Below, piece by piece: positions 16,933 to 21,147 of a stretch of DNA of 33,672 bases (the first letter of the stretch is position 1; each line of letters begins with the position of its first letter). The position numbers and the translations under genes are program-made. Location of the stretch: the UHGV virus genome UHGV-2170543. One strand, written 5' to 3'. Below the pieces are notes generated by a model. That model was not told where the DNA came from. It ran no database searches and saw only the letters and a list, made by a program, of their open reading frames with translations. This DNA comes from a virus.

Positions 16933-17558
16933 GCGTTAGTTTCTCCACAACCAGAAGCAATCGACGCCACGACGCCCGGAGCTGCACACTCGCGGGCGTT
17001 ACTCTTTTCCGGCGCACAAAAAACACGAAATAACAGTGTTAAATGCTCCTGCCACTTCGCCATTACTTGGTAGCTGTTCTCTTCGATTTGCTCACGCTCA
17101 GCCTGGTCAATAACTCCATCAGCAGTTGCCTTGCGTAAGTACTGGGAATGCTTGCCAATCCATTCTATTGACTCCATCAGCCGCTGATTAATGTCACCAT
17201 TGTCAATGTCATCAATGACCACCAGCGGCACAAACACCCCATTACTACGACGGGCTATTGCATCCGTTACATGCCTGGTACCACTGGCATCCTGTAAAAC
17301 CATGGCCCACTCAAGTGGAAAAATTTGATCCCCACCGCTACGCAGTCTGTTATGCAATTGATCTTTTGCTGGGGTGATATCATCAGATTTATACAAACCA
17401 AGAATTTCTGCTGCTTCCTCATAGCCATGAGGTAAATCAGCAATCGTTCTTCGTATTGCTGCCACCAGCCATGCTGGTTGCTTATCAACTTTCCATTCAG
17501 GTTCTTTACCCACGTTTAAGCCCTCATATCTGTGGTTTCTGTAAATCGATTTATCCAT
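16929..17558 (-). CDS. hypothetical early protein in cII position (YdaT-like?)
   Basis: About 209 aa from MDKSIYRNH...; directly follows cro; family uncertain. Confidence 0.5.
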
Positions 17559-17751
17559 TAGATTTTTCATAAAGCTCAGGTTTAAATGGCAACCGTCCGC
17601 AAGTTCTATATGCAGCCTCTGCTGCACGTCCTTTTGGAATTAACTGGCCAGGACGGTTTCGCCACTGATAAACGGCTTCAGTTGTTATGCCGAAAAAAGC
17701 AGCAACTTTCTCAATGCTGCCGAAGTAGCTTTCGATATCGTCAGTCGTCAT
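17551..17751 (-). CDS. cro: Cro-like HTH regulator
   Basis: 66 aa; FGSIEKVAAFFGITTEAVYQWRNR HTH; divergent from CI-like repressor. Confidence 0.7.
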   Translation of the reverse strand: MTTDDIESYFGSIEKVAAFFGITTEAVYQWRNRPGQLIPKGRAAEAAYRTCGRLPFKPELYEKSNG

Positions 17752-17848
17752 ATGCCCTCCAAACTAAGTTTTATTAGATGTTAATTATCAATCTATCTTA
17801 GGTCAATAAAAACTAAGATTACTTAGTAATTAAAGAAATGGTGCTCCT
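17752..17848. promoter_or_regulatory. immunity-region operator/promoter interval (OR/PR/PRM)
   Basis: Inverted half-sites ACTAAG-ATTA-CTTAGT at 17811-17826, further CTAAG/CTTAG copies at 17763 and 17796; minus-strand PR candidate -35 TTGACC (17805-17800), 17-bp spacer, -10 TAACAT (17782-17777). Confidence 0.5.
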
Positions 17849-18475
17849 ATGGAAACGGTTGGTCAGCGTATAAAAGCTCTGAGAAGAGTTACCAGAACGT
17901 CCCAGAAAGAATTGGGTAAATTTTGTGGAGTAAGTGACGTTGCTGTGGGGTACTGGGAGAAAGACATCAATGTCCCTGGTGGGGAAGCACTTTCAAAATT
18001 AGCGAAGTTCTTCAATACGTCAATAGATTACATTCTTTATGGTGCGGAGTTTGAAGGCAAACTCGTCACAAACATGCGCAGAGTTCCTGTAATCTCGTGG
18101 GTTCAGGCTGGGCAGTTTACTGAGTGCAGGACAGCAGAAGTGTTTAGTGAAGTAGACAAGTGGGTAGATACATCATTAAAGATTGGTGATAACTCATTTG
18201 CATTGGAGGTTAAAGGCGACTCCATGACTAACCCTAACGGCCTCCCAACAATACCAGAAGGCGCAACAGTGATTGTAGATCCTGATGCAGAACCCCGGCA
18301 TGGAAAAATAGTCATCGCTAGACTTGATGGAACAAACGAAGCCACAGTAAAAAAATTAGTTATCGATGGCCCTCAAAAGTTTTTAGTGCCATTAAATCCC
18401 CGGTACCCCAACATCCCGATCAATGGTAATTGCCTCATCATTGGTGTAGTCAAAGGAGTTCAATACGAACTCTAG
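17849..18475 (+). CDS. cI: CI-like repressor (XRE-type HTH + S24 LexA-like peptidase domain)
   Basis: N-terminal HTH SQKELGKFCGVSDVAVGYWEKD; C-terminal GDSM serine and KKL lysine of the S24 Ser/Lys dyad. Confidence 0.85.
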   Translation: METVGQRIKALRRVTRTSQKELGKFCGVSDVAVGYWEKDINVPGGEALSKLAKFFNTSIDYILYGAEFEGKLVTNMRRVPVISWVQAGQFTECRTAEVFSEVDKWVDTSLKIGDNSFALEVKGDSMTNPNGLPTIPEGATVIVDPDAEPRHGKIVIARLDGTNEATVKKLVIDGPQKFLVPLNPRYPNIPINGNCLIIGVVKGVQYEL

Positions 18476-18641
18476 CCCCCCCTTTTCTCTAACCAAAACA
18501 CCGAACTAAGAAAAGTTTGGTGTTTTCTCTTGCCATTAAAACTAAGTTAAGTTAGATTTTATATCAAAGATAACGAACAGGCAGGACGCCCACGAAGTAG
18601 CCGCCTGGGGCATATGAAGTCCAGGATGATTCGTTAGTACC

Positions 18642-18668
18642 AAAAAAGCGCCCTACCGGACGCTTCGC
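18642..18668 (-). terminator. candidate terminator downstream of 2-TM gene
   Basis: Minus-sense AAGCGTCC-GGTA-GGGCGCTT (one mismatch) followed by TTTTTT. Confidence 0.35.
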
Positions 18669-18831
18669 TCTTTAAAAATCAGTAACCCTCACTTTGGGCC
18701 TGGATCTGGTGGCCTGGGACGAGGTGGAATATGAAAAGGCTCTATTGGTCGACTCATTATCCAATCCTATTATGTCTCATTTCTTCGGTTTCGGTGGTTT
18801 CGGCTTCGGAGGTACATGTCCGTGAACTGGA

Positions 18832-19326
18832 TTATGCTTGTTGGTCATCATTAATATCCGTTAGTTCATTCTCTAGAGGTAGATCTCCCGCACACCAAGC
18901 TATAAATTTTTCTTTGGTTGTTAAATCGTACTTAGTTGGAACACCAGCAAAAATACAGGCCCGAATGAAAGCCGCTCGTTCAAGTGATTTCCATGGATTA
19001 CTATCAGTATCTTGGATTTTTAAATACCTAGCTTGCAACTGATCTTCAGGAAGGGTATCAGACTCAATCAGCAGTCTTTTGTAATGCCTCGCTTGCTCTT
19101 TAGACATTCCAGCCTCTTGGCCAAACTGATAGACCAACTGAAGAACCGAAAGTACGGCAACAAACAAACCGAAAATAAATAAATTACTGTACGGGGCGAA
19201 AACTGAAAAACCGAGAACGATTAACATCAACGTTATTAATTTATCAATGCGAGTTAACAACGTGTAATTCATCTTCTCCAATACATAAGAGTAGTGAACA
19301 TAAAATTTATAATCGTCTCTGGTCAT
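18832..19326 (-). CDS. 2-TM membrane protein in the rex-like slot adjacent to cI
   Basis: 164 aa; two hydrophobic helices (LITLMLIVLGFSVFAPY, LFIFGLFVAVLSVLQLVY) then charged cytoplasmic domain; AT-rich; convergent with cI. Confidence 0.55.
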   Translation of the reverse strand: MTRDDYKFYVHYSYVLEKMNYTLLTRIDKLITLMLIVLGFSVFAPYSNLFIFGLFVAVLSVLQLVYQFGQEAGMSKEQARHYKRLLIESDTLPEDQLQARYLKIQDTDSNPWKSLERAAFIRACIFAGVPTKYDLTTKEKFIAWCAGDLPLENELTDINDDQQA

Positions 19327-19711
19327 ATTAGTCTCAGTTTTCCTTGGGTGGTTTTGGAGGAACTGGAGGCTTTTGTCTTAACGGCACATGCCTCTCCTCA
19401 TACTTATCTACACATAGATCCATATAAATCCTTATCGTTGTTGGGGAGGGTTACATAATAACCAAATCCTTGTTGTTGGGGAATAACCAGGTCCACCTCG
19501 CCTGATGTGGCTAAAAGCAGGCACATAACAGCTAAGTATTTTCAACCAGAGAGAATCCTTAGCGTTGTGGTGAATGCGCAGGCTGATGCGCGAAAGACAT
19601 TGCAGCTATTGCGGAAAAGAGCTGTTCGGCGGGGCAATTAAACGCCCGTGAGAGTCTGAAATAACCGCAAGCCGGAGATCAGCACCGGTCACCACAACAG
19701 CCACTGCTTTG

Positions 19712-19757
19712 GCGGTACCAGTTTGTACCCTTGCTTCCGGCTGGTACCGCTCTTTTT
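19712..19757 (+). terminator. strong hairpin terminator in leader of yfdP-like operon
   Basis: Perfect 10-bp stem GCGGTACCAG/CTGGTACCGC with 19-nt loop followed by TCTTTTT. Confidence 0.5.
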
Positions 19758-19894
19758 ACAAAACAGAGAAGAGCATCACCGGACGACGGGCTCATAACCC
19801 AATCCATCCGGGCGGCTGTCACCGCAGGTGTTCTTCTCTGTTTTGTGGAGAAACCAACCGACCTTGCAGGGTCGGTATGATGAGGAGCAGCAAA

Positions 19895-20257
19895 ATGGCT
19901 AGCGTACGCAGTACTGATGTGCAGGTATTTATCGTAGAACTGGACGGCGGCGTATTTGAAACCAAACTCGGCGCAGTTCTCAGTGAAGTCGCTTCCGGTG
20001 TGATGAACACGAAAAACAAAGGTAAAGTCTCGGTCAATCTGGACATCGAACCGTTTGATGAGAACCGTGTGAAAATCAAACACAAACTCTCATATGTTCG
20101 CCCGACTAACCGCGGGAAAATCTCCGAAGAAGACACCACCGAAACGCCGATGTATGTCAATCGAGGTGGTCGCCTGACTATTCTGCAGGAAGACCAGGGA
20201 CAATTACTGACTCTTGCCGGTGAACCTGACGGAAAACTCCGCGCAGCAGGTCGTTAA
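19895..20257 (+). CDS. YfdP-like hypothetical protein
   Basis: 120 aa from MASVRSTDVQVF with GAGGAG RBS; first gene of a block resembling CPS-53 yfdPQRST by order and lengths. Confidence 0.45.
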   Translation: MASVRSTDVQVFIVELDGGVFETKLGAVLSEVASGVMNTKNKGKVSVNLDIEPFDENRVKIKHKLSYVRPTNRGKISEEDTTETPMYVNRGGRLTILQEDQGQLLTLAGEPDGKLRAAGR

Positions 20258-20322
20258 TATCGTTCGTAATAAACTGATTATTTATCTCATCACTGAATAT
20301 CTTTATATAGTGAGGACTTATT

Positions 20323-21147
20323 ATGTCTCAGAACTTAGACGCAACCGCAATTAATCAAATCCATGCCCTTATTTCTGCTCAGGGTGTTAATGAAATTATC
20401 AGTAAGATTGGTGCCGATGCTGTGGCATTGCCTGAGAATTTCCGCATTCATGATCTGGAAAAATTTAATTTAAATCGCTTCCGTTTCCGTGGTGCACTTT
20501 CCACTGCCAGCATCGATGATTTTACCCGTTATTCTAAAGATCTTGCAGATGAAGGCACCCGCTGCTTTATCGATGCCGATAATATGCGTGCCGTCAGTGT
20601 GCTTAACCTGGGTACTATTGATGAGCCAGGTCACGCAGATAACACTGCCACTCTCAAACTGAAAAAGACAGCACCGTTCTCTGCTCTGTTGTCTGTTAAC
20701 GGCGAGCGTAACTCCCAGAAGTCACTGGCAGAATGGATCGAAGACTGGGCCGACTACCTTGTGGGCTTTGATGCTAATGGTGACGCTATTCAGGCAACAA
20801 AAGCGGCTGCGGCAGTCCGTAAAATCACGATTGAAGCAAACCAGACCGCTGATTTTGAAGATAATGACTTCAGCGGCAAACGCTCCCTGATGGAGTCTGT
20901 CGAAGCGAAGACCAAAGACATTATGCCAGTGGCATTTGAATTTAAATGCGTTCCGTTTGAAGGTCTGAAAGAACGTCCGTTTAAATTACGCCTCAGCATT
21001 ATCACTGGCGATCGTCCTGTACTGGTTCTGCGCATTATTCAGCTGGAAGCGGTGCAGGAAGAAATGGCTAACGAATTTCGTGATCTGCTTGTTGAGAAAT
21101 TCAAAGACAGCAAAGTAGAAACCTTTATTGGTACTTTCACCGCCTGA
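20323..21147 (+). CDS. YfdQ-like protein (DUF2303 family)
   Basis: 274 aa; length and position match yfdQ of CPS-53-type prophages as recalled. Confidence 0.6.

Follow-up and report, generated by a model that had tools for sequence, protein, structure and literature searches.

SLATT proteins are predicted pore-forming effectors with two transmembrane (TM) helices found in CBASS, Thoeris, DRT and RADAR-type systems, and those of CBASS, Thoeris VII and DRT10 are membrane effectors that kill cells. To our knowledge, every characterised SLATT system has a signal-generating partner. In phage lambda, the rexAB genes beside cI are co-transcribed with cI from pRM, outside the pL operon, and RexB is a membrane protein to which depolarisation of the cell during abortive infection is attributed. 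Another arrangement has been described for Tha/Ith of the S. aureus phage 80alpha, in which a "noncontiguous operon" with antisense layout ties the defence encoded by the prophage to its life cycle and balances immunity against autoimmunity (PMC11087260). Here, we describe a gene for a 2-TM protein of 164 amino acids (aa) at 18832-19326, on the minus strand of the virus genome UHGV-2170543, together with the small operon to which it belongs. The whole stretch of DNA that was analysed, 33,672 nt, is referred to as the window, and all positions are those of the window.

The stretch 19530-18643 (minus strand) is a small prophage accessory operon, i.e., a moron, made up of a 5' region, a 29-aa peptide, the 164-aa protein, peptides of 24 and 22 aa and a terminator. 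It is variable cargo in a conserved slot, with an atypical GC content, its own terminator and an orientation that is independent of the lytic operons. An earlier sequence-only reading of the window had treated the 164-aa protein as a lone gene; it is instead the large cistron of a four-cistron operon that contains three conserved proline (Pro)-rich micro open reading frames (micro-ORFs), which had gone unnoticed. As a tentative explanation, we favour a membrane effector that would be expressed in the lysogen, gated by the micro-proteins and active in abortive infection or exclusion. The parts of the module are as follows.

19424..19530, minus strand: conserved 5' region, ~110 nt ahead of the first micro-ORF, with two of three repeats and a weak promoter candidate
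19334..19423, minus strand: upstream micro-ORF, 29 aa, MDLCVDKYEERHVPLRQKPPVPPKPPKEN; unannotated
18832..19326, minus strand: 2-TM protein, large cistron of the module; ORF with ATG start, 164 aa, remotely SLATT-like
18777..18851, minus strand: downstream micro-ORF d1, 24 aa, MMTNKHNPVHGHVPPKPKPPKPKK; shares the last 20 nt of the 2-TM gene; unannotated
18689..18757, minus strand: downstream micro-ORF d2, 22 aa, MSRPIEPFHIPPRPRPPDPGPK; AGGA 9 nt 5'; unannotated
18643..18678, minus strand: module terminator, TTTTTAAAGAGCGAAGCGTCC-GGTA-GGGCGC-T6, with the hairpin at 18648-18663 written GCGTCCGGTAGGGCGC + T6

How does this locus compare with the described systems? With the SLATT systems (CBASS 2TM effectors, Thoeris type VII ThsH, DRT10/UG17 and RADAR/DRT3 accessory proteins), it shares a small 2-TM hairpin, flanking cytoplasmic helices and a location on mobile elements. 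It differs in that the module pairs its 2-TM protein with 1-4 Pro-rich micro-ORFs, without a signal enzyme in ~90 loci, and in that its SLATT matches are below threshold. With lambda RexAB, it shares the genomic neighbourhood, both being cargo beside cI. However, the module is convergent to cI, has the cI terminator and oL/pL in between and is antisense to the pL operon; furthermore, the proteins are unrelated in sequence, with neither Pfam nor PADLOC giving a match, there are two TM helices compared with four in RexB, and there is no RexA-like sensor. The likeness to Tha/Ith lies in the antisense embedding, which makes lysogenic and lytic expression mutually exclusive in 80alpha and which recurs here as a geometry in three different slots. 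In 80alpha, an inhibitor is antisense within the cI operon (PMC11087260), whereas here it is lytic operons that hold the putative effector module in antisense, and the proteins are unrelated.

The 2-TM protein and its family

The ORF at 18832-19326 is a real gene, as seen from its relatives, a pN/pS (ratio of nonsynonymous to synonymous polymorphism) of 0.26 and the confident fold predicted by AlphaFold2 (AF2). Its RefSeq entry is WP_001513551.1, a "hypothetical protein", and PHROGs assigns the protein to phrog_6315, function unknown, with an E-value of 9e-64. The searches returned 72 close relatives, and clustering at 50% identity put the family at 154 clusters. Nearly all family members are 145-190 aa long; the representatives span 38-211 aa, and the only one that is longer than the others (P0069) owes its excess to a run-on into unrelated sequence. 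Only the central region was compared; chromosomal prophages of at least 19 complete E. coli genomes match it with 100% identity. Lysogens with the identical locus include E. coli AR_0013, MS8345 and ECSC054. Homologues are present in 105 of 5426 complete E. coli genomes (~2%), chromosomal in every case, and many Salmonella, Klebsiella, Enterobacter and related prophages also carry the module. The gene is AT-rich, as had been noticed before, with a GC content of 37.8% compared with 48.4% for the window.

The 164-aa protein has two charge-free hydrophobic segments, residues 30-45 and 49-66, separated by a three-residue loop (YSN). An amphipathic, charged helix of 29 residues precedes TM1, so that the two N-terminal TM helices proposed earlier are present but do not lie at the extreme N terminus. 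Five K/R residues lie before TM1 and four within the 24 residues past TM2, and the C-terminal ~100 residues are charged. An N-in/C-in topology fits the hairpin because the termini are charged and K/R residues occur on both sides of it. Only three residues would then face the periplasm, and the conserved residues of the family are nearly all cytoplasmic or within the membrane. Y12, R26, Y82, D108, W112 and G147 belong to the conserved positions. Sequence analysis revealed no signal peptide and no periplasmic domain. The AF2 model is all-helical and confident, with a predicted local distance difference test (pLDDT) of 93.4 and a predicted template modelling score (pTM) of 0.85, and contains helices at 3-41, 49-66 and 68-88 followed by four further cytoplasmic helices. 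The protein thus has the core architecture of SLATT proteins, i.e., a TM hairpin with flanking cytoplasmic helices.

Is the protein related to SLATT effectors? Neither Pfam nor NCBIfam contained a family that the 164-aa query matched, with E-values allowed up to 10, and a profile search of a 5.8-billion-protein set returned members of the family alone, none of them with a Pfam SLATT annotation. In UniRef, two relatives are named SLATT proteins. Among 92 diverse relatives, 36 matched NCBIfam SLATT_4 (best E 8.6e-7), which was the only recurrent NCBIfam model; other NCBIfam matches were to SLATT_1 (10 relatives) and TIGR04402 (12 relatives), and weak matches to SLATT_5 were also seen. The SLATT alignments of these relatives always span the helix-TM1-TM2-helix core. 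Similarly, when the model was compared with BFVD using Foldseek, 9 of the 23 best matches were SLATT-annotated giant-virus proteins, with probabilities of 0.80-1.00. The profile and structure check for SLATT-type families that had been proposed for this protein therefore came out weakly positive for the relatives and the BFVD folds, while the query stayed unmatched, every sequence match was below threshold and the fold matches were weak. We regard the protein as remotely SLATT-like, and not as an established member of the superfamily. A literature search returned nothing relevant on STM2734 or WP_001513551.

Conserved proline-rich micro-ORFs around the 2-TM gene

The upstream micro-ORF has its own Shine-Dalgarno (SD) sequence, AAGGA, 7 nt 5' of its start, and its stop codon lies 7 nt ahead of the ATG of the 2-TM gene. 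We found it in all of the ~80 prophage and phage loci scanned, which included close homologues and ten diverse ones: the window, 64 IMG/VR contigs, prophages of Salmonella, Klebsiella, Sodalis and Atlantibacter, Fels-2, a Yersinia P2-like phage, and Providencia and "Elizabethkingia" phages. It was also read by eye in three distant Q-holin loci. The distance between the micro-ORF stop and the main ATG is 6-10 nt in 70 of 78 loci (2-22 nt overall), and the stop usually forms part of the SD that serves the main gene, giving TGAGGTG or TAAGGAG. This geometry fits translational coupling of the two cistrons, and the layout, with a small 5' cistron closely coupled to a larger gene, is like that of a type II toxin-antitoxin (TA) operon. 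The 35 variants of the upstream peptide follow a common pattern, ..[YF]EE[KR]H[MLV]P..[QK]RP.xPPKP plus a charged tail. With a pN/pS of 0.41 and a variability of 0.28/0.20/0.45 at codon positions 1/2/3, the upstream micro-ORF shows purifying selection at the protein level.

In the Enterobacterales lambdoid loci, the 2-TM gene is followed by one to three paralogous micro-ORFs of 21-26 aa with the pattern ..H[VI]PP[KR]PRPPxP..K and basic tails. All four Pro codons are in use at each Pro position, and the variability is 0.56 at the third codon position compared with 0.19/0.21 at the other two. In a six-frame translation of the whole window, the Pro-rich motif occurred three times, always in the module, where 0.02 occurrences were expected. 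A distant branch keeps one upstream micro-ORF (..DHMPPDL...KPKQ) with a long non-Pro linker. The diproline is not universal, as Fels-2 has PRPAPAPKPEP and another group of loci (L044) has RPAPIPEPKPEM. The micro-proteins end in ..PKEN, ..PKPKK, ..DPGPK, ..PPKED or ..KPKQ. None of them has a family in PHROGs, and PGAP annotates the 164-aa gene only, with no micro-ORF annotated.

In P0013, a protein of 180 aa from Pectobacterium aroidearum, the 2-TM protein is naturally fused in frame to a Pro-rich peptide of the downstream type (..KPPVDGHIPPRPRPPAPPKAQN). In its AF2 model, the last 10 residues are ordered and non-helical, with a pLDDT of 88, which is suggestive of the Pro-rich peptides docking on the cytoplasmic domain. 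The fusion itself could be genuine, or it could be a frameshift or sequencing artefact.

Salmonella enterica carries a divergent chromosomal homologue (~27% identity; L089/L090) in a cluster of 1564 sequences. This copy is fixed in a prophage remnant beside a SopE-family effector gene (probably sopE2) and is without a recognisable upstream Pro-rich micro-ORF. It may be decayed or repurposed.

Antisense placement and the slot beside cI

In every phage, the module is antisense to lytic transcription, and it occupies three types of slot: the pL leader beside cI, the Q-holin region and the P2/186 early operon. The early-operon slot is used in Fels-2 and the Yersinia P2-like phage, and the Q-holin slot in EKP1 and in Salmonella and metagenomic phages. 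Because the module is antisense in three different lytic operons, its placement suggests that expression would be restricted to lysogeny and silenced on prophage induction. In Fels-2 (NC_010463, 5001-5459; L018), the homologue is unannotated and an opposite-strand ORF, STM2733.1.Fels2, is annotated over it. Similarly, in the Yersinia phage vB_YenM_42.18 (4001-4453; L019), the homologue is unannotated and the opposite-strand ORF vBYenM4218_008 is given instead.

In the window, the slot is bounded on one side by the repressor gene and its control region.

17849..18475, plus strand: cI-like repressor, 208 aa, HTH_3 + Peptidase_S24, Pfam E 1.6e-27; annotated as a LexA family protein
18495..18558, plus strand: putative oL/pL block, with the cI terminator hairpin at 18495-18526, operator-like sites and a promoter-like element

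Beyond the repressor lie a P22-Cro-like gene (17551..17751, minus strand) and a CII/YmfL-like gene; the opposite flank carries yfdP-like, yfdQ (DUF2303) and yfdR genes on the plus strand. The block after cI contains the operator-like motif AACTAAG-N4-CTTAGTT at 18504 and 18540 and the promoter-like element TTGCCA-17-TAGATT at 18530-18558. The operator motif also occurs at oR (17762 and 17811), giving four sites in total compared with 1.1 expected. We read 18495..18558 as a probable oL/pL that points into the slot. The block is immunity-specific, as the SfV-type allele has TTGACA-N16/17-CATAAT and its own repeats at the same place. We aligned the cI-yfdP region of the window with those of 569R4, mEp460_4F5, SfV and PhiR49_1. 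All five phages have the same layout, in which the immunity block is followed by a shared leader, variable cargo and a second shared leader before yfdP. The alignment places the slot inside the pL (early-left) transcript, with the module antisense to it.

The sequence-only reading had described the gene as cargo convergent to a CI-like repressor, in the position of rex. The two genes are indeed convergent (minus strand 18832..19326 and plus strand 17849..18475), and the gene is indeed accessory cargo beside cI, as unrelated genes occupy the slot in phages that share the same cI and yfdPQ. In the regulatory sense, the position is not that of rex: the gene converges on cI from downstream of pL/oL and reads antisense to the early-left operon, and the presence of pL/oL between cI and the 2-TM gene had been overlooked. 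A convergent repressor is found within 1.5 kb of the gene end in 57 of 77 homologous loci, mostly at 280-450 bp, and these repressors represent many immunity types, with 32-100% identity to the query set.

The ORFan cargoes in the sister phages include minus-strand genes for 144 aa (L002, 3896-4330) and 242 aa (L017, 2633-3361), and plus-strand genes for 98 aa (L016, 2591-2887) and for a 122-aa HTH_17 protein (L003, 3654-4022). The minus-strand cargoes carry the flanking 5' region and terminator of the module, like a swappable expression cassette. Of the sister-phage cargoes, only one was matched, to HTH_17 and weakly to mad1; designation of the slot as a known defence hotspot is unsupported by the catalogue matches.

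The leader segments at 18572-18635 and 19493-19895 (plus strand), between pL and yfdP, are conserved across immunity types. A 1.2-kb query containing the leader matched at least partly 2420 of 5426 complete E. coli genomes, a count that does not distinguish which part matched. The second segment is GC-rich and contains a 25-nt inverted repeat (19758-19782 / 19822-19846) with GGTACCAG/CTGGTACC arms and no Rfam match, and the early-left leader may contain a structured RNA. An Rfam scan of 17400-20400 at E up to 1 returned no family. At 19579-19700, ~120 nt of the shared leader is swapped for unrelated sequence of similar length relative to 569R4, mEp460_4F5, SfV and PhiR49_1. Elsewhere in the window, further low-GC stretches (0.36-0.40) at 9001-10000 and 27501-29000 may be accessory or foreign cargo.

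The two ends of the operon

The terminator and the upstream direct repeats that had been pointed out from the sequence both proved to be real features of the module. The terminator lies ~170 nt past the stop codon of the 2-TM gene, beyond the two downstream micro-ORFs. The same element is present in 70 of 78 loci, at most 450 nt from the gene end, with an invariant stem and a variable loop. The hairpin appears in the centroid fold, but shuffled versions of the 59-nt stretch fold equally well (z -1.0).

When read as its reverse complement, i.e., on the plus strand and thus in the pL transcript, the terminator becomes a hairpin followed by GCTCTTTAAAAA, which is rrn-type boxA-like. The boxA match at 18667-18678 has one mismatch and is by itself not above chance within the window; its weight comes solely from conservation across loci, with the exact GCTCTTTAACAA, which we take to match the rrn-type boxA, in 38 loci. 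A hairpin before boxA is also the rrn order. The plus strand at 18648-18678, and likewise in two of the sister phages (L002 at ~3637 and L017 at ~2572), reads as a hairpin followed by GCTCTTTAA(A/C)AA. This element may be an N-independent antitermination site in the early-left leader.

At the other end, the 5' region is nearly invariant across Salmonella, Klebsiella, Sodalis, Atlantibacter and E. coli backbones, and its conservation exceeds that of the coding sequence. The repeat AATCCTT-N3-GTTGT occurs three times (19427, 19465 and 19554), where 0.14 copies were expected and none of 100 shuffles reached three. On the minus strand, the repeats read TCCCCAACAAC..AAGGATT. One copy (19427-19441) shares sequence with the SD of the upstream micro-ORF; the third, at 19554-19568, falls beyond the invariant stretch. 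A weak sigma-70 promoter candidate, with -35 TTCCCC at 19483-19478 and -10 TATTAT at 19460-19455, is also found in this region. A module promoter controlled by a cI operator was ruled out, as the operator motif occurs solely at oR and directly after cI.

In extended form, the minus-strand repeats (19427-19447, 19465-19484 and 19554-19574) read ..CAACAAC(A/G)..AAGGATT with the core ACAAGGAU, which presumably resembles the CsrA-binding consensus RUACARGGAUGU. In one locus (L013), a phage csrA gene lies directly 3' of the module. Translational control by CsrA is a possible mode of regulation.

Proposed mechanism and alternative explanations

Might the Pro-rich micro-proteins gate a membrane effector? 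According to the explanation that we tentatively favour, the module would be expressed solely while cI holds pL off, i.e., in the lysogen, and head-on transcription would silence it once its own prophage turns lytic. The 2-TM protein would act as SLATT proteins are predicted to do, as an effector that breaches or depolarises the membrane. The co-translated Pro-rich micro-proteins would gate this effector via its cytoplasmic domain, in place of a nucleotide second messenger, in an antitoxin-like or a ligand-like role; they are the sole conserved partners. A superinfecting phage would upset the balance, e.g., through host shut-off or the loss of a labile peptide, upon which the effector would assemble and the infected cell would be aborted or the infection excluded. 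Lysogen expression, silencing on induction, peptide-protein binding, membrane damage and an anti-phage role are the steps that we infer. The sequence-only reading is partly supported, in that the gene encodes a 2-TM protein, is variable cargo beside cI and has the terminator and the upstream repeats; its lysogen-expressed exclusion role is a candidate function.

Several observations weigh against this explanation. PADLOC-DB v2 contained no family for the query (E up to 10) or for three relatives (E up to 0.01). The query itself matches no SLATT model, and neither the query nor any relative attains a curated SLATT cut-off; the scores in the 10 relatives checked were 14-20 bits, compared with cut-offs of 55 (SLATT_4) and 41 (SLATT_1), and TM-rich sequences are able to give spurious weak profile matches. 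The Pfam SLATT models gave zero matches among the relatives, the SLATT-annotated BFVD matches have TM(query) scores of 0.28-0.60 and E-values of 0.03-0.4, and the PDB yielded no relative by sequence-profile or fold search. A SMODS/CD-NTase, SLOG, TIR or reverse-transcriptase partner was absent from the called genes of the ~90 loci, and no fusions to such domains were seen. The promoter scan found no convincing sigma-70 promoter for the module beyond the weak candidate. The slot cargoes of 569R4, mEp460_4F5, SfV and PhiR49_1 include no catalogued defence gene. The suggestion of peptide binding comes from the pLDDT of a single natural fusion.

A quite unlikely alternative is non-lethal superinfection exclusion (Sie), in which genome entry would be blocked or an inner-membrane component that incoming phages use would be inactivated with no pore and no cell death, as modelled on P22 SieA, T4 Imm and HK97 gp15. 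A small inner-membrane protein beside the repressor, apparently meant for expression in the lysogen, would suit this role, and prophage Sie proteins such as P22 SieA are typically unannotated membrane ORFans. However, the protein exposes three residues to the periplasm, with its conserved residues nearly all in the cytoplasm or the membrane, the weak but recurrent likeness points to SLATT effectors rather than to Sie proteins, and three to four cytoplasmic Pro-rich peptides would be left without a role. Given the little periplasmic exposure, the conserved cytoplasmic helical domain and the remote SLATT likeness, a membrane effector that senses the cytoplasm appears to fit better than a blocker of DNA entry. 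The layout of the operon also brings to mind a TA-like addiction or stabilisation system, with the upstream micro-protein as a labile antitoxin and the 2-TM protein as a membrane toxin, which would penalise prophage loss or tune the lysogeny-lysis switch. Like type II TA and abortive-infection operons, the module has a small gene first, coupled to a larger and potentially toxic protein, on a mobile element; furthermore, it adjoins the immunity switch, and in one metagenomic locus a gene with a SocA/Panacea antitoxin domain lies beside it. On the other hand, Pfam and NCBIfam show no homology to any toxin or antitoxin family, the putative toxin is a membrane protein, and addiction alone would explain neither the extra, paralogous micro-ORFs behind the 2-TM gene nor why the module is strictly antisense in three lytic operons. 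We consider addiction as the main function distinctly unlikely, bearing in mind that TA and abortive infection can coexist.

It is improbable, in our view, that the Pro-rich peptides are themselves the active agents, acting on the ribosome like proline-rich antimicrobial peptides (PrAMPs) or through EF-P-dependent nascent-chain arrest, with the 2-TM protein as their gate, exporter, immunity protein or sensor. The idea draws on the three to five paralogous cationic or acidic Pro-rich peptides per operon that are under protein-level selection, and on in-cell screens of endogenously expressed apidaecin variants, which are on record in the literature. In size (21-32 aa) and in their P-R-P or R-P-P cores after an aromatic or His residue and a hydrophobic residue, the peptides resemble PrAMPs of the oncocin/Bac7 type I and apidaecin type II; the core [HF]-[VI]-P-P-[KR]-P-R-P-P is, as we take it, like Y-L-P-R-P-R-P-P of oncocin. 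However, such low-complexity resemblance is readily due to chance. PrAMPs are secreted by animals, whereas a prophage would supply the micro-proteins from within the cell. The tails of the upstream copies are acidic. The penultimate Arg and terminal Leu that form the type II pharmacophore (PMC11549390) are absent from the micro-proteins, which end in PKK, GPK, KEN or KED. A general model of EF-P stalling is weakened by the non-universal diproline, and the distant branches hold a single upstream peptide with a long non-Pro linker. There is likewise a small chance that the module is a conversion or fitness factor unrelated to phage, e.g., in membrane stress tolerance or host interaction, or an accessory of lysis timing. 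Genes other than defence genes are numerous among the morons of the Q-holin and immunity slots, and a homologue has become fixed in the Salmonella chromosome beside a SopE-family gene. Nevertheless, the module is never on the strand of the lysis genes, the protein has no signal peptide or periplasmic domain, and nothing points to a specific alternative. A holin or spanin was rejected because the gene is on the wrong strand and the PHROG match to an Rz-like spanin is insignificant (E 0.42).

Significance

The 2-TM family is uncharacterised and is absent from PADLOC and from the literature searched. That literature contained no relevant paper on SLATT proteins with proline-rich micro-ORFs, no description of a SLATT-like 2-TM protein that has conserved Pro-rich micro-ORFs without a signal enzyme, and none of the systematic antisense insertion of the module in lytic operons. 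As an unlikely but far-reaching possibility, the module may represent an unrecognised two-component prophage immune system, in which micro-proteins would replace the nucleotide messenger as the ligand or gate of a SLATT-like effector, or would themselves be PrAMP-like effectors that act on the ribosome exit tunnel or report on translation, and which head-on transcription from pL, Pe or pR' would turn off.

If the module does defend lysogens, it would be a compact defence unit of ~0.8 kb that current catalogues have missed. It would also mean that a SLATT-like effector works without a nucleotide-signalling enzyme, which bears on how SLATT proteins become activated. The locus is also a concrete case of conserved, selected micro-ORFs (22-50 aa) that annotation pipelines skip. 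Finally, the repeated antisense placement gives a simple, testable rule for how prophages may avoid self-targeting by their own defences.

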